From assembly GCA_963712665.1 (NCBI GenBank), contig CAVQIV010000010.1, positions 135,291-199,290 of the forward strand: a stretch of DNA of 64,000 bases. The letters run 5' to 3'. Made by a program: the position numbers and the translations under genes. Below are positions 4,610-38,238 of the stretch, piece by piece. The DNA comes from Thermoanaerobaculaceae bacterium (lineage in GTDB: Bacteria > Acidobacteriota > Thermoanaerobaculia > Multivoradales > UBA5704). The notes under the pieces are model-generated. The model searched no databases, was not told the DNA's origin, and saw nothing but the letters and a program-made list of their open reading frames with translations. How positions within the stretch are numbered: the first letter of the stretch is position 1; each line of letters begins with the position of its first letter.

Positions 4610-6051
4610 CACTAGTGTCCGGTTAGAAGTCGAATAGAATCAATTGGTTAGCGGGGGTGGCTATTTCTCGTTGGGACCGATCGGGCTGCAAGGCGCATGA
4701 AATCTCGGTTTTCTCGAAGATCGAGACCGACAAGATCTGTAGACATGTGTACAGCGAGGCCTCGAGTTGAAGCTCTTTCTTTACAATGGCGATCAACACG
4801 TAAGTGGCCACGGCGCACCAGATTTGCGTCTTCACCGCGTTCTCGCTGGTGCCAATAAATCGCTTAATGCGCAGGTGCTGTTTGATCCACTTGAAGAACA
4901 GCTCGACCTGCCAGCGGCCTTTGTACAGAGCGGCGATCGTCAAGGCGGGCAAGACCGTGTTGTTGGTCAGGAAGACGAGCGTCTTGCCCGACTCGGGGTC
5001 CTTGAAACGGACGCGCCGCAGATGCTCCGGGTAGGCCTTGGCCGAGTAGAAGCCGTTGAGCATCACGCGCTGATCGCAGATCACGCCGGTAGAGCGCTGC
5101 GTCGGCGACGAATACACGCGCCGGGCATCCATCCCGTGCTTGGCACGAGTGACGAAGAAAGCACCGGCCTGATGCATCGCGTACAGCCGCGTAAAGTCCA
5201 CGTAGCCACGATCCATCACGTAGAAGGCACCGGCCTCAATCGGCAGGATGTCGAGCACGTTGACATCGTGCAGCTTGCCATCGCTGATGTGGAGAAACGT
5301 CGGGATCGAACCCCGGAGGTCCAGAAGCGTGTGCAGTTTGACGGCCGCCTTGGTCGATCGAAATGGCGCCCAGTCGAACAGGCTCAGGCACAGATCGATA
5401 GTGGTGGAATCCAGCGCATAGACGCTGGCATCGAGCTCGAGCACCGAAGGATCTTGCGCGTAGAGCGCTTTGGCGCGCGCGATAAGTCGCTGAGCCAGCG
5501 CATGATAGATGCGCCAGTCGCGACGCTCGAGTGCGTCGGCCAACGTCGAGCGCGCAGGCGACGCCTTCATCCCCATGTGGAACAGCTTGGTTTGGTTGGC
5601 GGCCAGACAAGCCTCGATGTCGCGCAGCGATTCGCGCCAGGTGAGTTGCGCGAAGGCCATGACGCGGAACAGGTCGGCACAGCTCAGAGTGCGCACGCCC
5701 GCATCACCCTTGTGCCGTTCGACGATGCGTCCGAAGGTCTTCCAGGGGACGAACTCCATCACCTGTGCGAAGAGCGTCTTGCCCACGTTCATGCTTCACC
5801 TCGGGGTCGGTCAAGCCCGAGAGCATGGCATGGACGAGTAGCAAAGCCTCGCCCTCAGCTACCGGGAGCCCGGCCAACCCCCTGGCTCAGTTCTGGACCG
5901 GAGCCGAAGCCCCATCCCCAAGAGATTGCTCAAGCTCTCCGGGCCGCCTCCTCCCCCGAAATTCAAATCGTGGACACCCCTGAGTCAACCCGAAACTACA
6001 GTCAATGCTGGCCTTACGGTCGGTAGACAGCAAATAGACCGGACACTAGTG
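4610..6051 (-). mobile_element. Complete IS4-family insertion sequence, 1442 bp
   Basis: 14-bp perfect terminal inverted repeats CACTAGTGTCCGGT (4610-4623) and ACCGGACACTAGTG (6038-6051); 9-bp target duplication TCACTCTAC at 4601-4609 and 6052-6060. Confidence 0.95.
4623..5792 (-). CDS. IS4-family DDE transposase (DUF4372-type N-terminus)
   Basis: YALDSTTIDL, VMDRGY, YKGRWQVELFFKWIKQHL motifs; intact 389 aa. Confidence 0.95.
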   Translation of the reverse strand: MNVGKTLFAQVMEFVPWKTFGRIVERHKGDAGVRTLSCADLFRVMAFAQLTWRESLRDIEACLAANQTKLFHMGMKASPARSTLADALERRDWRIYHALAQRLIARAKALYAQDPSVLELDASVYALDSTTIDLCLSLFDWAPFRSTKAAVKLHTLLDLRGSIPTFLHISDGKLHDVNVLDILPIEAGAFYVMDRGYVDFTRLYAMHQAGAFFVTRAKHGMDARRVYSSPTQRSTGVICDQRVMLNGFYSAKAYPEHLRRVRFKDPESGKTLVFLTNNTVLPALTIAALYKGRWQVELFFKWIKQHLRIKRFIGTSENAVKTQIWCAVATYVLIAIVKKELQLEASLYTCLQILSVSIFEKTEISCALQPDRSQREIATPANQLILFDF

Positions 6052-6135: not shown

Positions 6136-8766
6136 TTACGGTGTATACGTCACCGTAAGCTGCGGCCGGTTCGCCTGGGTCGCGTTCTCTCCCGAGAAGA
6201 AACCGATGTAGTCGTAGCCGAGGTCGTCGTTGTCGTCGAGGGTGAAGGTGAGACGGAGCTGCGTGGTGCCGGTCTTGTTGATGGCGGCGAGGCCGGCGGC
6301 GTTCAGGGTGCCGGTTGAGGCGGAGCCGTTGGCGGTGGGGTTTGACATCGTGGCCACGCTGGTCGCCGTTGCCGCGGCCTGCCAGTCGGCGAAGGCGAAG
6401 GCGGTGGAGCCGCCGAAGCCGCCGGTGGCGATGTCCACGACGCAGGAGCCGTGGGTGGTGAAGGGATTGGTGCCTGAGGAGGTCCCTCGCACCAGGCGGA
6501 GGGTCGCGGAGGTGATCGTCGCCGTGTCCGGAATCGAGGAGGTGTCGAAGGAGACGAGGCTCTTGTATTGCTCGTCGGCGCTGGTGTCGCCCACACGCAG
6601 GGCCGCGGTGGTGTTGTCGGTCGAGTTGCCGCCGCCGCCGGCGTTGCTGGTCTCTCCCACTTCCCAGATCCGGCCGTCCTCCGCTGGCACCGAGAAGAAG
6701 GTCACAGTCACCGGGTTCGTCGGCACGCTCGTTACGGTGACGGGGATCTCGTTCGAGATCAGGGTCGAGCCGCAGCCGGGCGTCGTCCTCTCGACCAGGA
6801 AGTAGCTGCCGGCGGCCGGGAAGCTGGCGCAATTGAGAACGTAACTATTTCCCGTCTGGCCCGTGATGTTGGTGATCGCGCCGCCCGAGACGGTGCGATA
6901 ACCCCACTGATGGCTGGCGGTGCCGCCGCCGGTATCCGTCACCGTCGCGGTGCCGCCCAGACAGGGGCTGCCGATCGTCGTGCTGCCCGCGACGGAGATC
7001 GTCACGCTGGTGAGAGGAGAGGCGATGCTCACGGTGGCGCTGCCGGCGCCGGGCTGGTTGCAGCCGGTGCTCGACACACTGGTGAGGGAGTAGGTGGTGG
7101 CGGTGGTGGGCGACACGGAGCGCGTGGCCGGGGTGGAGCTGACACCGCTCTGGACGAAGCCGTCCGACCAGGTGAGCGTCCACGGTCCGCTCCCCACGAG
7201 ATCGACGGTGAGGGTGGCCGGACTGCCGGCGCAGACCGCAGTCGATCCAGAAACCTTTCCTGGAATGGCACATCCCACGTCGAGGCGGCCGTAGCCGTAG
7301 ACGTTGTTGGGAACGGCTCCGGCCGCGCTGCTGCATGTGGCCGTGGTCAACGTGATGTGCTTGGCGGACGAGGTGAGGCGGCTTTCGATCGCGTCCACGT
7401 TGCCGATGAGCGAGGGGAACGCCGAGAGTAGAAGCGCCACGCCGCCGGCCACGTGCGGCCCTGCCATCGAAGTGCCCGAGAGGGAGGTGTAGGTGGTATC
7501 GCCGGTGCCGTAGGATGAACGGGTGCTGGTGCCGGGTGCCATGATGTCGGGCTTGATGCGATTGCTGCCGTCGGCCGTCACTGGACCGCGGCTGCTGAAG
7601 CTGGCCACGGTATCGGCGCCGGTGTTGAGCGCTCCCGTGGTGAACGATGGATCGTAGAAGCTGGGGGGATCCATCACCGTGGAGCAGCCCGATCCCGAGT
7701 TGCCGGCCGAGACCTCCATCAGGATGCCAGCCGCGCGCGTGTTGGTGACGCCGGTCAGGAGGACGTTGGGGGTCGTGCAGCCCTCGGCGGCATTGCAGCC
7801 CCAGGAATTGACCGTCACGTGGGGGGCCTTGCTGGGATCGCCCTGGCTGGTGGTGCCGCCCACCGGATAGGGAGCCAGGAAAAACTCCATACATTCGAGA
7901 TAGCTGGCGGGCGTGCCGGCACCCTGGTTCATGTTGCGGCAGCCGATCCACCGCGCTCCCGGCGCCATGCCGACCTGGTTGGCGCCGTCGAGGCCCACCG
8001 CGGTGCCCATGGTGTGAGTGCCGTGACCGTTGTCGTCGCACGGCGCGGGGGAGTTGGCGCCGCACGAGCCGCCGCCGGAATGGATGGAGTCGTGCCAGTT
8101 GTAATTATGGCTGGCCGTGGTGCCGTTCCAGCCACGATAGGCGTTCTTGAGCGCGGCGTGCGTCCAGCGATAGCCCGTGTCGGCGCCGCCCACGACCACG
8201 CTCTGCCCGGTGTAGCCCAGGCTCCAGACCTGCGGCGCCCGCACGTAGCTGATTCCCGGCTCGGCGGACGTGATGGCCTTGTCGAGCCAGTCCGGATTGA
8301 ATTCCAGGACCTCCGCCTTTTGCGGCCTGGGCAGCGTCTGGCGCATTTCGGGGTTGCCGTCGATCCGCTTCACGTCGGGCCGCGCGGCCAGGATCTCCGC
8401 GAGATTGCGATCGCCTTTGACCAGGATCGCGTTGACCAGGTAGAACGAACGGTACTCGATCCCGCGGGCGTCCAACTCGGCCAGGATCGGCTTCTGGGTT
8501 TCCTGCGCGGTCCTGAGGAGCGTCCGATAGACGAACTGTCCTTTGCTCAGCTTGCTCTTGAGCTCTTTGGCGTCCGAGAGGTTCGCCTGCTTCGCCAGCA
8601 CGACGAAGAACTCCGCCTGGGCGCCGGCCCGGGTGTTCTCGATTACCCAGGGCTGGATCTTCTCAAATCCGGGCTGGCGCACCTGGGCGTGCGCGCTCGA
8701 CGCGATCAGCAAGGCTCCAACGACCAGGACCAGGCATTCACTCGCCTTCCAACGGGATATCTTCAT
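6136..8766 (-). CDS. Secreted S8 (subtilisin-like) serine protease with C-terminal beta-rich accessory domains
   Basis: Signal peptide; catalytic motifs GGADTG, HGTHTMG, GTSMAGPHVAG; C-terminal SFDTSSIPDTATITSATLRL...RPQLTVTY (DNRLRE/CBM96-like). Confidence 0.93.
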   Translation of the reverse strand: MKISRWKASECLVLVVGALLIASSAHAQVRQPGFEKIQPWVIENTRAGAQAEFFVVLAKQANLSDAKELKSKLSKGQFVYRTLLRTAQETQKPILAELDARGIEYRSFYLVNAILVKGDRNLAEILAARPDVKRIDGNPEMRQTLPRPQKAEVLEFNPDWLDKAITSAEPGISYVRAPQVWSLGYTGQSVVVGGADTGYRWTHAALKNAYRGWNGTTASHNYNWHDSIHSGGGSCGANSPAPCDDNGHGTHTMGTAVGLDGANQVGMAPGARWIGCRNMNQGAGTPASYLECMEFFLAPYPVGGTTSQGDPSKAPHVTVNSWGCNAAEGCTTPNVLLTGVTNTRAAGILMEVSAGNSGSGCSTVMDPPSFYDPSFTTGALNTGADTVASFSSRGPVTADGSNRIKPDIMAPGTSTRSSYGTGDTTYTSLSGTSMAGPHVAGGVALLLSAFPSLIGNVDAIESRLTSSAKHITLTTATCSSAAGAVPNNVYGYGRLDVGCAIPGKVSGSTAVCAGSPATLTVDLVGSGPWTLTWSDGFVQSGVSSTPATRSVSPTTATTYSLTSVSSTGCNQPGAGSATVSIASPLTSVTISVAGSTTIGSPCLGGTATVTDTGGGTASHQWGYRTVSGGAITNITGQTGNSYVLNCASFPAAGSYFLVERTTPGCGSTLISNEIPVTVTSVPTNPVTVTFFSVPAEDGRIWEVGETSNAGGGGNSTDNTTAALRVGDTSADEQYKSLVSFDTSSIPDTATITSATLRLVRGTSSGTNPFTTHGSCVVDIATGGFGGSTAFAFADWQAAATATSVATMSNPTANGSASTGTLNAAGLAAINKTGTTQLRLTFTLDDNDDLGYDYIGFFSGENATQANRPQLTVTYTP

Positions 8767-8914
8767 CGCTCTCTCCCTTCCGTAGGTTGAGGTGCAGCGG
8801 AAAAGCTGCCGTCAATGAAACACGGTTGAAGAGGCGCTGTCAACAACCGCGCGACTTGGGCGGCACTTTGGGTCTCGCCCTGGTGTAGACTCGGGGAACA
8901 AGGAGGAGCACGCT

Positions 8915-9109
8915 ATGAAGAAGAGGCTTCCGAAGAAGCTGGAGCTCAGCCGCGAGACCCTGCGGTCTCTCACGGCGCCCCGGATGGGCGAGGTGGCCGG
9001 AGGGGGGTCGAAGATCACGTGCGCGGTGATGTGCACGTCGATTGATACGGCCTGCTTCCAGACCTGCGACTGCCCCCCGCCCACCTCGCCCATCGTTTGC
9101 TCGACCTGA
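8915..9109 (+). CDS. RiPP (lanthipeptide-type) precursor peptide 1
   Basis: AAGGAGG RBS; leader KKLELSRETL ending VAGG; core with 6 Cys and many Ser/Thr. Confidence 0.85.
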   Translation: MKKRLPKKLELSRETLRSLTAPRMGEVAGGGSKITCAVMCTSIDTACFQTCDCPPPTSPIVCST

Positions 9110-9216
9110 TCGCGGCACTACTAATTTAGGTGCCTGAGGCACCTCTGCCGGGACAGCGGCATATACCGGTCTGGGTCGATCTCAGTGTAGAATTGGAAGC
9201 CAAGGAGGAGCAAGCC

Positions 9217-9408
9217 ATGAAGAAGAGACTTCCGAAGAAGCTGGAGCTCAGCCGCGAGACCCTGCGGTCTCTCGCGGAGATCCGGATGGGCGAGGTGGCC
9301 GGCGGGGTGTCGAGGCAGTCGCCCACGTGCCCGATCATATGCGGGTCGGACGCCAACACCGTCTGCTTCGAGACCTGCGCCTGCACCTCGCCTATCGTCT
9401 GCGAGTAG
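9217..9408 (+). CDS. RiPP (lanthipeptide-type) precursor peptide 2
   Basis: AAGGAGG RBS; leader nearly identical to precursor 1; core VSRQSPTCPIICGSDANTVCFETCACTSPIVCE. Confidence 0.85.
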   Translation: MKKRLPKKLELSRETLRSLAEIRMGEVAGGVSRQSPTCPIICGSDANTVCFETCACTSPIVCE

Positions 9409-9410
9409 GC

Positions 9411-9472
9411 ACCCTCATCACCCCGGCCCTCTTCTCCCGCCTCCTGCCACCCCCTCACCGGGAGAAGAGGGA
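9411..9472. repeat. Partial copy of palindromic repeat family B
   Basis: CCCTCATCACCCCGGCCCTCTTCTCCC...CCGGGAGAAGAGGGAG shared with 34058-34248 and 58679-58866. Confidence 0.8.
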
Positions 9473-9569
9473 GTAGGTTGCGCTGTGCGCATCAGGAACA
9501 GTGAAGGTGCGCACAGCACATCCTACGGCAAGACCATTCGCAGGCGTTCCCCTCAGGGTTTCGAGGGCC

Positions 9570-9770
9570 TCAGAAGCCGCAGGCGATCGTCCACTGCCCG
9601 CAGTTCGTGACATGGGAGGTCCCGGGGCAGGTGCAGGGATAGCTCGGCGGCATCGTGGGCGAGCAGGTGGTGCTGTTACAGTACCGCGGCAGGGCGTTCG
9701 CCCGCGGTGCCCAGAGGGCGACCAGCGTGATCCCAAGCACGGACGCGAGAAGCACGATCTTTTTTCTCAT
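9570..9770 (-). CDS. Small secreted cysteine-rich peptide
   Basis: AAAGGAG RBS; Sec signal ending ANA; 40-aa mature part with 6 Cys. Confidence 0.8.
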   Translation of the reverse strand: MRKKIVLLASVLGITLVALWAPRANALPRYCNSTTCSPTMPPSYPCTCPGTSHVTNCGQWTIACGF

Positions 9771-9915
9771 GGCAAAGCTCCTTTGGAATAGGTCTCTCTC
9801 TTAGAGGAGTGCAGGATTCCCGCCAAAGCGAGACCGAGGAGGTGGCGCCAGGCCATGGGAGCCAGGGATTTCAATCCCGGCGAGGGGTGGGCGCCGAACG
9901 TTTATGAGGCCGCTT

Positions 9916-10679
9916 CTACGGACCCTTCAAGAGGGATAGGTACTCCTCGCTGTCCGAGATCGAGTTGTGGCCCGTACCGCGAATGACCTTCATCGTCGCG
10001 ATGCCCGGCAGGAAGTGATGGAAGAGAGCCTCGGTGCTCGCGCGCGGGATGATCTCGTCGTGCTCGGCCGCGATCAACAGCGTCGGCACCGTGATCCGGA
10101 CTGCGTAGCGCCACGACTCGAATTTGTCTTTGAGCAGCCACCGTACCGGGAAATAAGGATATTGGCGAACCGCCAGCTCCTCGACGCTGTTGTAGGGCGT
10201 GACCAGCACCAGACGGCTGACGGGCCGCTCGCTCGCCAGCCGGATCGCGACGCCGCTGCCCAGGCTTCGACCCACGACGGTGATCGTCGGCATGCTCCGC
10301 GTGCACCTTGTCGAACAGGGCCAGCGCGTCACCATGGATGGCCGCTTCGGAGGGCTCGCCGGAGCTTTCCCCATAGCCCGCGGTAGTGGAGCAGGTAGAG
10401 CGAGTGTTCCGGAAAAGCCGCGGAGAACGCGGGGAGGTTGTGCGACACGTCTTCGGCATTGCCGCCAAAATAGATCAGAGCCTTCGGACCTGAATGCGGC
10501 CGTACCGACAGGGAGAGTGTAGCGTCAGGCCGCTGGAGCGTGGCCGTGCTTGCGGTGCTCTTGTAGGCCCGCGGCTGTGGATAATAGATGAGCGATCGCT
10601 GGGAGGTGTACATCAGGACACAGATACCCAGATAGACACCCACAATCACGAGGATGGCACCGATGATCACGCGTCGCAT
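9916..10679 (-). CDS. Alpha/beta hydrolase (one frameshift near 10380, further indel near 10300-10330)
   Basis: YFGGNAE and LLHYRG in one frame; GRSLG nucleophile elbow, AEHDEII and TGHN in another. Confidence 0.8.
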
Positions 10680-10700
10680 GGGTCTCCCGTTAGCCTGGCA

Positions 10701-11534
10701 TCAAGAAGGATCGCCGGTCTGCGTTCCCGTGACCAGGCGGACGTATTCTTCCATGACGGCACTGTTTCGCGAAGCGTTCCATCCCCGCCGATTTTTACGA
10801 GGTGCCGTTTCAATCTCCGCCACGATGAGGTCCGGGCCAAGTTGCCGTGCCGACTGAAGCACCATGCCGTCCGGATCGACAATCCCAGAGGATCCGTAGG
10901 ATATCAGGCTTTCCGTACGCCCTGAGACGTCGGCACGGATCACGGAAACGCTGTTCTCGATCGCCCGCGCGATGTCAAGGTTTCTTGCCTGGGCGACCAG
11001 CTCCGGTCCTCCTTTCGCCGGAGGGAGACCATTGTTCGTGGGCACGAACAGTGCTGCCGCCCCGCGAGAGGCCATGATCCTGGCAGGTTCGTAATAGTTG
11101 GAGTCGAGGCAGATGATGATTCCGAAAGTCAGGTCGCCTACCGTGAAGACTGGGATCTTGTCTCCAGCCTCGTAGACCGACTTGTTGATCGCCGGATACA
11201 GTTTGCGATAGATGCCGAGGACCGACCCTTGGTGAAAAACCGCTGCAGAATTGTAGAGCCGTCCTCTTCTGTCAATCTCCGTGAATCCTAGAATGGTCGT
11301 GACCCTGTCGCTCGCAAGGGGGGCCAGTAGCGCCTGTAACTGACCGCCCTCCGCGTCGATCGCGATGTCGGTGGGGCGGCTCACGTAGTCAGCCAGACCT
11401 CCCAAGACTCCCTCTGGACAACATAGAATCTCTACACCGTTCGCTTCACACCAGTCCACCTGTTCGCGAATCAGGCTCAGGACCTCCAGCGAGCGGGTGG
11501 CAGGCAGGGGAGCTTGGTAGGCGGCGACCTTCAT
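10701..11534 (-). CDS. Carbon-nitrogen hydrolase (nitrilase family)
   Basis: Glu-Lys-Cys triad motifs CCPEG, IYRK, IICLD. Confidence 0.9.
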   Translation of the reverse strand: MKVAAYQAPLPATRSLEVLSLIREQVDWCEANGVEILCCPEGVLGGLADYVSRPTDIAIDAEGGQLQALLAPLASDRVTTILGFTEIDRRGRLYNSAAVFHQGSVLGIYRKLYPAINKSVYEAGDKIPVFTVGDLTFGIIICLDSNYYEPARIMASRGAAALFVPTNNGLPPAKGGPELVAQARNLDIARAIENSVSVIRADVSGRTESLISYGSSGIVDPDGMVLQSARQLGPDLIVAEIETAPRKNRRGWNASRNSAVMEEYVRLVTGTQTGDPS

Positions 11535-11587
11535 TGGAGGTAGTCTCCGGGCGAGGTTCTGAATGCGGTTGGACCTATCTCCCGGTG

Positions 11588-11793
11588 TTCAGCCCCGAAG
11601 GGGGCGACAGCGTGCAGCCTGGGGCGTGAGCCCCAGGAACACGGAGCCTTCCATCCTTTCAAGCCCTGAAAGGGCGGCAGCAGCTTTCTTTCGGCGGTCT
11701 TCTGCCGCCCTTTCAGGGCTTTCGGGTTTGGAGAGATCCTTTACCTGGGGCTCACGCCCCAGGCTGCACGCTGCCGCCCCCTTCGGGGCTGAA
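11588..11793. repeat. Long nested inverted-repeat REP/MITE-like element
   Basis: TTCAGCCCCGAAGGGGGCG..CAGCGTGCAGCCTGGGGCGTGAGCCCCAGG arm and its mirror image; inner AGCCCTGAAAGGGCGGCAG/CTGCCGCCCTTTCAGGGCT. Confidence 0.85.
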
Positions 11794-11855
11794 GCAAAAA
11801 CTGGCACCACGGTTGTTCCGTGAGGAACTCTAAGCATCCAAGACCGTCAAGCCGA

Positions 11856-11884
11856 AAGATAGACTTCCTTCAGCCTGGCGTCAA
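11856..11884 (-). promoter_or_regulatory. Sigma70-like promoter
   Basis: TTGACG-17 bp-TATCTT on the minus strand. Confidence 0.45.
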
Positions 11885-11974
11885 GAAGCATGACCTCCCC
11901 GAAGCCTCCTTCAGAGACGTTCAACCCCGGTTCGCCGTCTGTCGCCCGAGGCGCGGAGACGTTTGGAGCCGGCG

Positions 11975-12220
11975 CGCAGCCGTTGGAAATCCTCTGGCCG
12001 ACGCTCGAAATCGTCCGGCCGGCAGCGGCGAGAGCCTGGCCGCTGTCGGCCAGCCATCGGCCGGTGGTGAAAACCGTCTGGCCGGCGCTGGCGAGAGGCT
12101 GGCCAGCGTTGGCGAGGCACCGTTTACTGCCGGCGAGCCTTCGCCGAACGCTGGCGAGCTCTGTTTGAGCGTTGGCGAGCCTCGTTTCAACGCCGGCGAG
12201 CCGCTCCCAGACGCCGGCCG
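11975..12220. repeat. Degenerate 21-bp tandem repeat array
   Basis: (C/T)GGCGAG-like motif recurring every 21 nt; minus frame reads LAGVETR LANAQTE LASVRRR. Confidence 0.7.
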
Positions 12221-12459
12221 ATGTACTCCGGAGGGACTTGGGGCGACGCTGGAAGGGGCTGATCCGTAAATCAGTCGGGCGGGATACGGCGCGGACCGGG
12301 AGATCCCTGGTTTCGACTCTGGCCTGCCGGCGGCTCTTTGACAATTGACGCAAACTCAATCTCCGGCCCGGTGCGGGGACGGGCCGAGGATTTCCTTGCC
12401 AGGGGGACAGGTGCGGGCTGTCCTCCTGGTGCCTTGTCTGGCGGGCTTCAGATCATCGT

Positions 12460-13262
12460 TCAGCCTCCAGTTCGCTGTGGCCAGCGCACGAAGAATCCAT
12501 CTGACCATACGATGTCTTCGTCGAAATCGGTTGGAGCGAAGGGACCGACGGTATAGTCGGTAGCGGAAAATCTACCATCTCGTCCCGGGCTACGGATGCT
12601 CATAACTTGTTTTGCCAAGACGTCTGCAGTATTCAGGTAGAACTCATAAGGATGGCCCCAACCATCCTTTTCTGGGAGTGACTGCAGGTACTTGGGAACC
12701 AGGATCGGCTCGAGCTCTTTGCGGGAAATGGGGGGATACTGTGTGAGAGATATCGTCTTGCTTTCCCCTGAAGTCTGCGACTGCCCTGCTGCTCCTGCTC
12801 CGACCTGATCCGTCAGCCAACTGAACATGGCAGTGCCAACGTTTCGAAGGTCCGCAACGGTTCTCTTCTGCGCCTCCTTGTCATGGATTGGATTTTGTTC
12901 CACCGCGCCCTGTCCAGGATCAGCATTGGATTTCTTCGTATAACGGTTACATTTACAAACGGAACAGATGAGCTCGCCGCTGCTGGAGTCGATGGGCAAG
13001 GGGAGCGATCCCATCATGGGAATGCCGCTCATCACCAGTGTTCCCTTGTCGTCAACTGACGCAGGAAAGGTATGACCGTTCTCGTCGGTCACCAGGAATG
13101 AGCCTTGATTAGCCTTGATCTCGAAGAAGTCGCTGCGTCCAGAGGCGCACTCCCATCTGCCGTATAGCTTTCACCCTTGGCGCGACACCCGAGACCTGAA
13201 CCCAGAATTACCGCTACACCTAACGACCACAGCAGTGTCAGACCGCGAACTTGGCGCATCAT
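12460..13262 (-). CDS. Probable lipoprotein with C-terminal GspG-like (type II secretion pseudopilin) domain; frameshifted near 13090-13160
   Basis: GGAGGAGG RBS and lipobox-like GLGC in the upstream frame; QKRTVADLRNVGTA, DGWGHPY, IRSPGRDG, DIVWSDG in the downstream frame. Confidence 0.65.
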
Positions 13263-13286
13263 CGTAAACCTCCTCCCAGTCAGAAA

Positions 13287-13344
13287 GCCCAACCTTTAAG
13301 CATAAGTATACCGCAGCGATCCGGTTGGATACACTACCTTGGGC
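13287..13344 (-). other. attC-like site (58 bp)
   Basis: Begins GCCCAAG immediately after the GNAT stop, ends GTTGGGC (GTTRRRY); imperfect internal palindrome. Confidence 0.5.
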
Positions 13345-29400: not shown

Positions 29401-30493
29401 GTTTCACCTCCACACCTCGCAACTCCTGGACCTTCTCCTCCGGCAGCGTATCCGCGGTGAACACCCCGGCGCCGAGCTCGCTGCCGGCCAGGTACTTGAG
29501 CCGGCCCGGCATGCGGTAGGCAGGGTAGAGCTCGATGTGGAGATGAGCCTCGGGGTGCGGCTCGCCGTCGGTGGGGGCCTGGTGAAAGACCATGACGTAG
29601 GGGAACGGTTTGCTCCACAGCCCGTCGTACTTGAGGAGCACGGTCTTGAGAGCACGGGCGAAGTCGGCCCGCTCGGGCGCGTCGAGGTCCGCCACCGAGC
29701 CCGCGGACCGGCGGGGGGCGATCCAGACCTCATAGGAGTAGCGGGCGAAGACCGGCATCCAGGCCACGGCCCGCTCGCCCGTGTAGAGGGTCCGCCGGCC
29801 GTCCGCGAGCTCGCGGCCGATCAGGTCCTCCAGCAGACCGGTCCCGTGCTCGGCCAGCCAGGACCGCTGCTGCTCCAGCTCCCGGGCGGGGACGGGAGGG
29901 ATGAAGGGATAGGCGTAGATCTGCCCGTGCGGATGGTGGAGCGTGACGCCCACCTCGACCCCCCGGTTCTCGAAGGGCATGACGTAGTCGACGTCGTCGC
30001 GCGCGCCCAACTCGCGGTAACGGTCGGCCCAGACCTCCAAAAGCAGCTCCAGGTGATCGAGCGGGAGCGCGCCCAGCGACGAGGCGGGATCCTGGGTGAA
30101 GACCACCACCTCGCAAGCCCCCTTGCCCGGCCGGGTGGGGACGATCGCCGGGGACGCCGGCTCCGCGGCACGCTCCGTGAGGGTGGGGAAACGGTTCTCG
30201 AACACCGCCACGTCGTAGTCGCCGGCCGGCAGCTCGGTGGGATGGGTGGGATCGGTCGTGGGAGCCAGGGGATTGTATTCGGGAGGCGGCAGGAAGGTAC
30301 GGTTCTGCCGGTAGCTGGCATAGGCCACCCACTCGCCCCGCAGGGCGTGCCAGCGCAGGTGGGTCTGGTTGCCGGGCGGCTCCGTGCCGGGGCTGGTGGC
30401 CTCGATGTTTTCCGGAATGGGCCGGCGCGCGTAGAGGATGAGCGCGCGGCCGTCCGGTTTGGTGAGCCTCCTCTCGTACATGCCGCGGCTCAA
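29393..30493 (-). CDS. galT: Galactose-1-phosphate uridylyltransferase (start may be 30481)
   Basis: [13 protein letters not shown] active-site motif, KYLAGSE. Confidence 0.95.
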
Positions 30494-32389
30494 TCCTTCT
30501 CGAAAGGTGGAGCGTGGGGATCGTGCCGCGTGCCGGCGCCGCCGACGCCGGCGGCCTGGATCGGGCTCTTCCGTTTCGCCTCCGCCGCGGCTTCACCCCG
30601 GGTGGCCGCCGCGATCTCCTCCAGGGGGAACTTGGGTGTGCGGTCGGCGTGCAGGAGCCCGTTGGCTTCCTGATAGGTGTCGGCGAACTGGGTGTAGCAG
30701 AAACCGGCGAGGAGGCGCGCGGAGTTGACCTGCTCCATGCAGGGCGCGGTAGCGCTCGGCGAGCTCTTCGCTGCGCCGACACCCGCGAGTAGCCCCAGGT
30801 TTCGGCGATCGGCCGAGGCGGCGATGCCGCCGAACTCGGTGAGCATGACCGGCATGCCCGCGTGGCGCTGCTCCTCCAGCTCCAGCACCAGCAGCCGGCC
30901 GCCGGGCCGCTCCCGCTCGAACAGCCGCGGCAGCACGTCCTCGGCCTGATAGCGCTGCCCGAGGCGCTCGGGATCGGCGTCGTAGTCGTGGATGCCGATG
31001 ATGTCGGTGGCGACGCTCTCCCAGCCGTCGTTGCCGATCACCGGGCGGGTCGGGTCGAGCGTCTTGGTCAGGTGGTACAGGGAGCGCACGTAGTGGCGTT
31101 CCGGCTGGCTGTCCGGCAGATTGGGCACGCCCCAGGACTCGTTGAACGGCACCCAGGCGATGATGCACGGATGGCTGTAGTCGCGGCGCACGGCCTCGCA
31201 TCCACTCGCGGGTCAGCCGCTGGATGGAGCGCTTGTGTGAAGCGGTAGGCGCTCGGCATCTCCTCCCAGACCAGGAGGCCCAGGCGGTCGGCCCAGTAGA
31301 GGTAGCGCGGGTCCTCGATCTTCTGGTGCTTGCGCACGCCGTTGAAGCCCATGGCCTTGGCCAGCTCGACGTCGCGGCGCAGGGCGTCGTCGTCGGGCGC
31401 GGTCAGGCCGGTCTCGGGCCAGTAGCCCTGGTCGAGCACCAGGCGCAGGAAGTAGGGCCGGCCGTTGAGCATGAAGCGGTCGCCCTGGATGGCGACCGAG
31501 CGCAGCGCCGTGTAGCTGCTCACCTCGTCGAGCAGCTCGCCACGGTCGGCCCAGAGCTGCGAGCTGGGCGTCGATCAGGGTGGGCGGCTGGGGGCTCCAC
31601 AGCAGCTCGTTGCGGAAGTCGTCGATGCCGGGATCGGACAGGGCGATCCGGCGGTGCGACCTCGCCGGCTACGACGGTGTAGGTGTCGTCCGCCAGGAGC
31701 TGGCCGTCGGCCCGCAGCTTGACGCCGAGCCGCAGCCGCTCGCGGGCATCGCCTGCCATCCAGGCCTCGAAGCCCGATCTCCCAGCGCTCCAGGTTGGGG
31801 GTCCAGCGCACGCTGCCGATCCAGGTGGAGGGGACCAGCTCCAGCCAGACCGTCTGCCAGATGCCGGTGGTGCGCGGGATACCAGATCGAGTGCGGCTCG
31901 AGCTGCCAGTCCTGCTTGCCGCGCGGCTTCGCGAGGTCGGCGGGATCGTCGTCGGCGCGCACGACGAGCGTCTGCGTGCCGGGCGACGAGCAGATCGGTG
32001 ATGTCGGCCGAGAACGGCGTGTAGCCGCCTTCGTGGCAAATCGCGAGCGAGCCGTTGACCCACACGGTCGCGGCGTAGTCCACGGCGCCGAAGTGGAGGA
32101 GCAGGCGCTCGCCCCGCCGCAACCCCGGGGCCTCGAAGGTGCGGCGGTACCAGCACCGGGAATAGAAGCCCGTGTCATGGATGCCGCTCGCCGGCGTCTC
32201 GGGCGAGAACGGCACCACGATCGTGGCGTTCCAGTCCACCTCCCGGGGCGACCGCCAGCGGGCCTTGGGATCGAGGGCGAACTCCCAGGTCCCGTTGAGC
32301 GACGTCCAGGAGGCGCGCTGCATCAAGGGCCGGGGATGGCCATGGCCGGTCTCATCGATCGGGGTCTTGGGCGGATGTCGTCTGGCCAT
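30490..32389 (-). CDS. GH2 glycoside hydrolase (beta-galactosidase/glucuronidase-like), multiply frameshifted
   Basis: [61 protein letters not shown] spread over several frames. Confidence 0.85.
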
Positions 32390-36901: not shown

Positions 36902-37111
36902 TCAGCAGTTTTCGTTCCGGGTCGGGAAAGGCCTCGTCGGGCACGCATAGCACTGCGTAGCGCAGGAGTCTGACGGGCCGCACATGGTGATGCAGAGGCT
37001 CGGGCAGGTATCTCCTGCGGTCGAGGCTCCGGCGATTTCCTGCAAAGACGTCTGATCCAGCGCGACCAGGGTTTCCCGATTCAGATGGAGCTTCCCAAGT
37101 TTCTTCTTCAT
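36902..37111 (-). CDS. RiPP (lanthipeptide-type) precursor peptide 3
   Basis: AAGGAGG RBS; leader KLHLNRETL ending IAGA; core with 7 Cys and many Ser/Thr. Confidence 0.85.
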   Translation of the reverse strand: MKKKLGKLHLNRETLVALDQTSLQEIAGASTAGDTCPSLCITMCGPSDSCATQCYACPTRPFPTRNENC

Positions 37112-37150
37112 GCTTACCTCCTTGAGAGGGGCTGATTCTACTCTAAAAGC

Positions 37151-38125
37151 TCAAGAATACCGCTCCTTCGCCAACTCCACGATCCGCTCCACCAGGTCCG
37201 GAAACTCCATCTCTGCCGCCTTGGCCGCCATCGCGAACTCGCTCTCCTTCTCCAGATAGCAGCTCGCGTTGACCTCGATGACGTAGATCTCCCCCGTCTC
37301 GGTGAGCCGGAGATCGACTCGGCCATAATCGCGGACCCGCACGGCGCGGTAGGCGTCCACGGCGGTCTTCTGCAACCGGGCGCGCAGCTCGTCGGGGAGA
37401 TCGGCGAGCACGGATTTCGTCCCCTTGTATTCGGCGCTGTTCTTCTTCCACTTCGCCTTGGTGCCCAGGATGCGCGGCTCTCCTTCGGGGAAGCCCGTGA
37501 AATCCACCTCGATGGGCGGCAGGGGGATGGGCTCGCGGTTGCCGAGCACGCCGACGTAGATCTCGCGCCCCTCGATGTACTCCTCCACCAGAGCGCTGTC
37601 CCCCACCTTCTCGTGGATGGCGATCACCCGCTTCATCAGCGACGTGGCGTCGCGCACCAGGGAGTCGCCGTCGATGCCGATCGAGGCGTCGGCGGTCAGG
37701 GGCTTGACGAAGAGCGGCATGCGCAGCCGGCCCGCGGTCTCGAAGTCGGAGTCGCGGGAGAAGACGGCGAAGTGGGGATAGAGGAGATCGTCGAAGGCCA
37801 GGACCTTCTTGGCCAGACCCTTGTCCTGCCGCAGGTAAAGCTCCCCAGGGCCGCCGCCGGTGAAGCGCAGACCCAGGAGATCCAGCACGCCGGCCACGCC
37901 GATGTCCCCCGCCGTGCTCTTGCCGAAGGTCTCCAGGAGGTTGAACACCAGCTCCGGCTTGCGCCGGGTGAGGCCCGAAACCAGCGTGCGCAGGTCGTCG
38001 TGCACGCCCAGCACGCCGACTTTGTGACCCTTCTCTTCCAGGGCGGCGACCACCTGGTCCACCACCACGTCATAGGACTTTGTATCCTCTTTTTTCTCGA
38101 GACCCGCGAGGACGGTGATTTTCAT
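37151..38125 (-). CDS. D-Ala-D-Ala ligase-like ATP-grasp protein
   Basis: VFNLLE, PLFVKP, ASIGI, LVEEYIEGREIYVG, YGRVDLR, IEVNAS. Confidence 0.9.
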   Translation of the reverse strand: MKITVLAGLEKKEDTKSYDVVVDQVVAALEEKGHKVGVLGVHDDLRTLVSGLTRRKPELVFNLLETFGKSTAGDIGVAGVLDLLGLRFTGGGPGELYLRQDKGLAKKVLAFDDLLYPHFAVFSRDSDFETAGRLRMPLFVKPLTADASIGIDGDSLVRDATSLMKRVIAIHEKVGDSALVEEYIEGREIYVGVLGNREPIPLPPIEVDFTGFPEGEPRILGTKAKWKKNSAEYKGTKSVLADLPDELRARLQKTAVDAYRAVRVRDYGRVDLRLTETGEIYVIEVNASCYLEKESEFAMAAKAAEMEFPDLVERIVELAKERYS

Positions 38126-38238
38126 GGCCGCTGCCCCATGCAAGGGCTGGGCCGGGAAGGCATCCGTCTTGCAGAAGAAAGGGAAATGAGGCCATGGCGA
38201 CGGTGCCGCGGCCCCCAGCTCTCCCAAGGAGGATTCCC

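Follow-up and report, generated by a model that had tools for sequence, protein, structure and literature searches.

Two small genes in tandem, which we refer to as A and B, lie in a 64,000-nucleotide stretch of the genome of a Thermoanaerobaculaceae bacterium (contig CAVQIV010000010.1, positions 135,291 to 199,290; henceforth the window), and each encodes a peptide in which an N-terminal leader is followed by a short, cysteine-rich core. Precursor A (8915..9109, plus strand) is 64 residues long: its leader (8915-9004) runs from M1 to G30 and ends in AGG, its core (9005-9106) has 34 residues with 6 Cys and 10 Ser/Thr, and its stop codon occupies 9107-9109. Precursor B (9217..9408, plus strand) is 63 residues long, with a leader at 9217-9306, a core of 33 residues with 6 Cys and 8 Ser/Thr at 9307-9405, and a stop codon at 9406-9408. 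Of the 90 bases in the two leaders (M1-G30; MKKRLPKKLELSRETLRSL...MGEVAGG), 84 are identical, while the cores agree at 65 of 91 aligned bases, with a further 20 gapped columns. Similarity between the two genes begins at a GTGTAGA box about 30 nt upstream, continues through an AAGGAGG sequence to the stop codon, and fades upstream of the box. An initial annotation of this DNA had described tandem open reading frames (ORFs) with near-identical leaders and diverged Cys-rich cores, ending at 9408 (the stop codon of B), and had read the pattern TCxxxC...CxxTCxC...TSPIVC in both cores. The sequence bears out this description, with TCxxxC, CxxTCxC and TSPIVC all kept in A and in B.

The same annotation had given each gene its own translation and transcription signals, and these held up only in part. 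A Shine-Dalgarno sequence, AAGGAGG, can be read 8 nt ahead of the ATG of both genes (8900..8906 for A and 9202..9208 for B, both plus strand). Upstream of it lies a motif that the two genes have in common and that is a possible -10 element, seen as GTGTAGAC T / GTGTAGACT before gene A (8883..8891, plus strand) and as GTGTAGAAT before gene B (9185..9193, plus strand). The box is thus present at both genes, but it is not a full sigma-70 consensus match: a strict consensus scan of 8700..9800 gave no promoter-like site, and we therefore treat it as a shared motif rather than as a -10-like box. The one terminator-like hit in this interval, on the minus strand inside gene A, was disregarded. When 47 members of the wider precursor family described below were considered, TAGAAT or (C/G)TAGAAT hexamers were found between -60 and -21 of the start codon in five to six of them (a count from a genome of 67% G+C, made with no formal background model), and such hexamers may represent the -10 element of the precursor genes. 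GGAG, GAGG or AGGA occurred between -20 and -4 in 41 of the 47.

Both leaders follow the pattern L9-x-L11-x-R13-x5-L19 with a terminal G29-G30, carrying Arg where the described motif has Lys, and hydrophobic residues can be read at -4, -7 and -12 of the double-glycine end. Residues 1-30 were matched by the NCBIfam model NF038153 (lant_leader_L1a, ‘class I lanthipeptide’) with 26.3 bits for A and 22.6 bits for B, the latter barely above the curated cut-off of 22 bits. This was the sole match: Pfam gave none for either peptide, and in NCBIfam neither Nif11 nor NHLP was matched at E <= 1. By this sequence criterion both leaders belong to the class I lanthipeptide leader family, which supports the initial assignment of the pair as lanthipeptide-type precursors. 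A search of 5.8 billion proteins returned 23 further homologues of A, 58-112 residues long and 58-73% identical to it over their full length, core included. In an alignment of 25 sequences no change is seen at S32, C36, C40, S42, T50, C51, C53 or C62, and almost none at T45 and C47. The numbers of Cys and Ser/Thr in each core of the pair would permit (methyl)lanthionine rings. Having passed a curated hidden Markov model (HMM), and with 23 full-length homologues that retain invariant Cys, Ser and Thr, the pair is, as judged from these alignments, more than a product of chance.

To place the pair among its relatives, we used a sample of 41 genomes, comprising the genome at hand (G000) and 40 relatives, 24 of which are of one genus. 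One of the 23 homologues, labelled by NCBI as Thermoanaerobaculia bacterium, is identical to the orthologue in the congener G022, and B is 78% identical to its orthologue in G019. In the 25-sequence alignment B is nearest to the consensus and represents the canonical form, and A is a divergent paralogue with a PPP insertion. We propose that A and B arose as tandem duplicates, of which B would have kept the ancestral core while A diverged. Compared with six orthologues, B has ratios of non-synonymous to synonymous substitution rates (dN/dS) of 0.16-0.60 in the leader and 0.41-0.91 in the core (with about 20 synonymous sites per region these are small counts), values that at the sequence level indicate purifying selection. 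Between A and B, dS is 0.09 in the leader and 0.31 in the core, with a core dN/dS of about 1.07; a second tandem pair, found in G013, has a core dN/dS of 1.99. As in prochlorosins, the pattern fits duplication followed by homogenisation of the leader and rapid change in the core.

Precursors and enzymes dispersed over the genome

A leader HMM that started from A and B was run iteratively on every stop-to-stop frame of G000 and converged on 51 small ORFs spread over 13 contigs. NF038153, applied to the whole genome, gave 26 matches, 21 of them above its cut-off. All 51 precursors start with MKK...L.L.RETL, and in 46 of them the leader ends in GG or GA. The medians for their cores are 34 residues in length and 6 Cys, with at least 2 Cys in 48 of the 51, and the cores are composed of 16.9% Cys and 24.0% Ser+Thr (vs 0.85% and 8.5%, respectively, in long frames). 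Six near-pairs occur among the precursors, A/B included. The initial annotation had suggested a genome-wide library of peptides, and the recovery of 51 ORFs with hypervariable Cys/Ser/Thr-rich cores by the leader HMM corroborates this. The library is also dispersed with respect to candidate processing genes: just 4 of the 51 precursors have a gene for a lanthipeptide enzyme (Lan) or a C39 peptidase within 10 kb, the other 47 lie farther away, and for 10 of the 51 there is no such gene on the contig.

The pair itself is an orphan in this respect. Whole-genome scans with PF05147, PF04738, PF14028 and PF03412 placed no Lan enzyme or C39 transporter on the 238-kb contig of the pair (C10), and neither was found by a Pfam scan of 59 of the 67 ORFs of the window (called by G+C content at third codon positions, GC3, and including A and B; the remaining eight, all short, lay outside the scan). 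The initial observation that the 64 kb hold no modifying enzyme or peptidase-ABC (ATP-binding cassette) transporter is thereby confirmed.

Elsewhere in the genome we found each component that a class I pathway would use. A full-length LanB dehydratase, with both a glutamylation and an elimination domain, is encoded by an ORF of 1121 residues at C3:21172-24207, which matches PF04738 with 583 bits and PF14028 with 236 bits, as well as MibB (5ehk, 7e-58) and NisB (4wd9). There are 16 LanC-domain matches, of which 5 are stand-alone (one each on C3, C26 and C12 and two on C9) and 11 lie in long fused ORFs. The G.AHG, WC.G and CHG motifs that align to NisC are kept in the C26, C9a, C9b and C3 copies, whereas the LanC-like copy on C12 is without the two Cys motifs. 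For the cluster-type C39 ABC exporter, the best orthologue (56-61% identity) sits, together with its HlyD partner, at the junction between the start of C11 and the end of C4. Apart from LanB and LanC on C3, the LanB, LanC and exporter genes are mutually unlinked. That maturases would be encoded elsewhere had been anticipated, and a genome devoid of any maturase for peptides that are made by the ribosome and modified after translation (RiPPs) had been named beforehand as the result that would speak against the idea; LanB, LanC and a C39 exporter are instead present on other contigs.

Three further loci in this genome carry genes related to these enzymes. On C8, a split LanB set (locus L002, G000:C8:495000-514999, at 6722..13313) consists of a 303-residue elimination-domain protein, a 149-residue protein of unknown kind and a 937-residue glutamylation-domain protein, and adjoins an 802-residue flavin oxidoreductase. 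On C9 (locus L003, G000:C9:801000-820999, at 6619..11962), an operon-like row runs M1-family peptidase - LanC - LanC - precursor, with no LanB nearby; the core of this precursor has four repeats of CT.xC, and the arrangement suggests, from gene order, that extra cyclases may be dedicated to particular cores. On C12 (locus L004, G000:C12:182000-201000, at ~9050..10752), a precursor is followed after 165 bp by the 487-residue LanC-like protein, in which the WC.G and CHG zinc-ligand motifs are missing.

Leader family and LanB in related genomes

We then asked how the leader family is distributed relative to these enzymes across the 41 genomes, counting a LanB N-domain match of E <= 1e-100 as strong. 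The A/B leader model matched 25 of the 41 genomes, and NF038153 matched 23, missing G011 and G030 of that set. All 25 leader-positive genomes had a strong LanB N-domain match, but only 1 of the 16 leader-negative ones did (G029). Within the genus, 20 of 24 congeners possess both leader and LanB. The remaining four (G004, G008, G009 and G010), which have no leaders, are also without full-length LanB and yet keep fused LanC-domain synthetases, which means that the leader family tracks LanB and not enzymes of the LanM/LanKC type.

Gene order in relatives points the same way. In three genomes from other families of the same order, the leader family sits within clusters of the standard kind: G027 has HlyD - C39-ABC - LanA - LanC - LanB on its contig C11 and LanB - LanC - six tandem LanA - C39-ABC - HlyD on C7, G030 has LanA - LanC - LanB - methyltransferase - C39-ABC on C127, and G025 has two LanA between LanC and LanB. 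The LanB locus of the genus is syntenic in 17 genomes, where the gene order is chorismate synthase - LanC - LanB (convergent) - RNase II; LanC itself was found in 15 of them. A leader ORF is directly beside LanC in two of these 17 regions (G019 and G020, in both of which LanA is immediately upstream of LanC), occurs anywhere in the ~12-kb stretch in 4, and is absent from it in 13.

Co-occurrence and clustering bear directly on the view that A and B are unmodified or disulfide-only double-glycine peptides, bacteriocin-like or used in signalling, which C39 transporters export without involvement of LanB or LanC. Such a peptide would look much like A and B in several ways, as the GG end is accompanied by hydrophobic residues at -4, -7 and -12, C39 ABC transporters are encoded in the genome, six conserved Cys allow three disulfides, and the contig has no Lan gene. 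We nevertheless consider this view quite improbable: the leaders pass a curated class I model, the Ser/Thr positions of the core are as invariant as the Cys, LanB is present in 25 of 25 leader-positive but 1 of 16 leader-negative genomes, and the leader lies among LanC/LanB genes in G027, G030 and G025.

It is likewise unlikely, though somewhat easier to envisage, that A and B are modified by another maturase, be it the split LanB on C8, one of the fused LanC-domain synthetases (of LanM, LanKC or LanL type) or an enzyme that escaped recognition. The genome offers such candidates in its 11 LanC-domain matches in long ORFs and its split LanB, a GG leader is a typical class II feature, and a distance of 7.7 kb separates one precursor from the split LanB and one from a fused synthetase. 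However, none of the 51 precursors adjoins a fused synthetase, and leaderless congeners keep such synthetases. The split type of LanB was itself not found in four leader-positive congeners (G005, G012, G014 and G018); as an observation on its spread, it occurs in 16 of 24 congeners and, counting G000, in 17 of the 21 genomes of the genus that are leader-positive. An all-against-all comparison of the 482 proteins encoded within 6 kb of the 51 precursors also produced no candidate maturase, the only recurrent proteins being Ser/Thr kinases/PD40 proteins, sigma-54 activators, histidine kinases and MacB/FtsX permeases.

We also modelled the complex between LanB (residues 1-800) and precursor A, which obtained a score of 0.61, compared with 0.02 for the best of 3 controls; the mark applied to this score is reached by 116 of 157 solved complexes and by 2 of 215 mismatched pairs. 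The models were built from our own alignments; for LanB, the G023 row (L045) was dropped for a stop in the matched stretch, and three other rows were shortened at their ends. Model runs agreed in at least 35% of contacts, with a predicted local distance difference test (pLDDT) value of at least 39 for the partner. The modelled interface brings LanB residues 204-228 and 248-272 together with leader residues 5-20, i.e., the LxLxRx5L stretch. The structure of a NisB-leader complex has reportedly been solved.

With leader family membership, the presence of the enzymes, the dispersal of the precursors, co-occurrence with LanB and clustering in relatives all observed, A and B are probably class I lanthipeptide precursors (LanA) that are matured in trans, for which dehydration, cyclisation, cleavage and export are what we infer. 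Under the proposed mechanism, the 30-residue leader (LxLxRx5L ... AGG) would serve as the recognition handle bound by the full-length LanB on C3, which would glutamylate Ser/Thr of the core and eliminate the glutamate to leave dehydro residues. A stand-alone LanC (presumably the copy on C3, C26 or C9) would add the six core Cys to these residues, giving up to six thioether rings, and the C39-peptidase ABC exporter with HlyD from the C11/C4 junction would cleave after the double glycine, at G30, during export. A single enzyme set would in this way serve in trans a dispersed library of about 51 members, prochlorosin-like in its logic but built on class I enzymes. The initial proposal of processing in trans, for a pair that is an orphan in the window, is therefore supported, while the class is refined to class I (LanB plus LanC) in place of the class II suggested by the prochlorosin analogy. 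For the genus as a whole we lean, with modest confidence, towards the view that one LanB/LanC pair in a housekeeping neighbourhood acts together with a C39 exporter, unlinked to it, to mature tens of precursors per genome, which are dispersed and diverge fast.

Several considerations weigh against this interpretation. The genomes compared are kin, so that their number greatly exceeds that of the independent events behind the co-occurrence. The LanB contig carries none of the 51 precursors, and just the four noted above have a Lan or C39 gene within 10 kb; it is therefore on co-occurrence and on the relatives that the link to the enzymes depends. The six Cys of each core could equally form three disulfides; the core dN/dS of about 1.07 between A and B fits relaxed constraint as well as it fits diversification; and the success of the complex model may reflect likeness to a complex that has been solved. 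Finally, a frameshift near L001:7940 divides the C3 LanC, and the C39 exporter at the C11/C4 junction is both interrupted by a contig end and frameshifted. The assembly, which comprises 27 contigs and is 80.9% complete, contains other split genes: in the window, an alpha/beta hydrolase (9916..10679, minus strand) and a family 2 glycosyl hydrolase (30490..32389, minus strand) are each represented by two overlapping or adjacent ORFs, and the C39 transporter on C9 is split too. Because unrelated genes are split in the same manner, we suspect indel errors, which the assembly probably carries and which its completeness in so few contigs would fit as well; the breaks in LanC and the exporter may thus be artefacts of assembly, although they may instead reflect real decay of the enzymes.

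Genomic surroundings of the pair

Upstream of the pair, and divergent from it, the window encodes a secreted S8 subtilase of 876 residues (6136..8766, minus strand), beyond which, about 3 kb from the pair, lies an IS4-type DDE transposase (DUF4372 + DDE_Tnp_1; 4623..5792, minus strand). Downstream and convergent with B is a 66-residue ORF (9570..9770, minus strand; GC3 0.87) that has a Sec-type signal peptide followed by a mature part with six Cys. Weak homologues of this ORF (32-50% identity) occur in 10 of the 40 relatives, the leader-negative G004 among them, and for this reason we regard it as a separate small secreted Cys-rich family.

No counterpart of any of 14 neighbouring proteins from the window was found beside the orthologues in six relatives, in four of which the orthologue instead adjoins a GGDEF-EAL sensor and an unannotated gene of ~470 residues. 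As the neighbours are without counterparts and the orthologues sit elsewhere in 4 of 6 relatives, the pair has moved, and the S8 subtilase is no conserved partner. We had considered this subtilase as a LanP-like leader protease and rejected it, since it has no counterpart beside the orthologues in the six relatives and does not recur near the 51 precursors; the sole S8 protein near an orthologue (in G017) is unrelated to that of the window at 1e-4. The ~470-residue gene was also set aside as a partner: it is convergent, has no Pfam match and only weak NCBIfam matches, and its copy in G000 (C26:287702-289009) is without a precursor, all of which points to ordinary synteny.

These surroundings contribute to a further explanation, namely that the pair, or at least A, is a relic of a dispersed family whose enzymes are failing and which yields no product. 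The nearby IS4-type transposase and a position outside that of the orthologues in 4 of 6 relatives would suit such a relic, as would the frameshifts in the C3 LanC and the C39 exporter and the core A dN/dS of about 1.07. Decay is nonetheless highly improbable, given that both ORFs are intact, with strong ribosome-binding sites and all six Cys, that the other LanC copies are intact with their catalytic motifs, that split genes are common in this assembly and point to sequencing indels, and that 20 of 24 congeners retain the system.

The window also holds a third family member (36902..37111, minus strand), a 69-residue precursor with a leader ending in IAGA and a core with 7 Cys, which scored 27.9 bits with NF038153 and 1.4e-10 with our own leader HMM. 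It lies 40 bp downstream of a 358-residue ATP-grasp protein with a D-Ala-D-Ala ligase C-terminal domain, on the same strand (joint span 36902..38227, minus strand), and the two genes are flanked by an M48 peptidase and a Peptidase_Mx-like protein.

Relation to known systems

The dispersal of this family has practical consequences. As 47 of the 51 precursors lie more than 10 kb away from Lan and C39 genes, genome mining limited to LanB/LanC neighbourhoods would miss about nine in ten of them. The comparison with sister families, in which the standard cluster is intact, further implies that such a cluster can dissolve into an enzyme pair of the core genome and a set of mobile substrates, and the size of the library points to a large unknown peptide pool in abundant, uncultured soil bacteria. 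If the proposed maturation is true, one LanB/LanC set that handles about 50 unrelated cores would amount to a natural, tolerant class I toolkit for libraries of thioether-ringed peptides. It would also be the first natural combinatorial library to run on tRNA-dependent LanB/LanC chemistry, with enzymes as tolerant of their substrates as ProcM. Substrate tolerance of this kind has so far been documented mainly for the class II enzymes ProcM and SyncM.

Among characterised systems, we compared A and B with three. Double-glycine class II bacteriocins have the same GG site with hydrophobic residues at -4, -7 and -12, a C39 ABC exporter and an HlyD-type partner. Those peptides, however, are unmodified, whereas co-occurrence with LanB/LanC, and clustering with their genes in relatives, tie the leader described here to these enzymes.

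Prochlorosins and SyncA peptides, the substrates of the class II synthetases ProcM and SyncM in marine cyanobacteria, likewise comprise tens of precursors with near-identical leaders and hypervariable cores, often encoded at a distance from a single synthetase and processed in trans. Published reports mention 79 SyncA substrates (PMC9872173) and prochlorosin genes so distant that they were hidden by a survey's own neighbourhood limit (PMC7268733). The system described here differs from these in its host, an acidobacterium, in lacking a Nif11/NHLP leader, and in having a separate LanB that depends on glutamyl-tRNA, together with LanC, in place of a fused LanM; glutamyl-tRNA is what class I dehydratases use (PMC9993889).

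The closest resemblance is to the class I precursors of Bacteroidetes (pinensins and Pedobacter PedA; NF038153), which have the same leader motif, a GG end and Cys/Ser/Thr-rich cores. A full-length LanB, a LanC and a C39 ABC exporter make up the enzyme set in both cases, and in relatives of our bacterium these enzymes are clustered with the leader studied here. Walker et al. (PMC7268733) describe LxLxKx5L with a Gly-Gly end in Bacteroidetes class I LanAs, often with a C39 protease in the cluster, and another report (PMC12328550) describes cleavage of PedA15.2 by the C39 protease LahT150. Compared with those systems, the host here belongs to Acidobacteriota, Arg replaces Lys in the leader motif, the precursors are unclustered (47 of 51 more than 10 kb away) and the enzyme genes are unlinked. 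A precursor of this leader family shares a cluster with LanB/LanC in G027, G030, G025, G019 and G020, but not in G000. In the literature searched, which left out most subscription journals and supplements, we found no dispersed class I precursor library, nor any such library in Acidobacteria. The leader type, the enzyme set and the curated HMM were thus already known from class I systems, and what seems new here is the dispersal of tens of class I precursors that would be served in trans.

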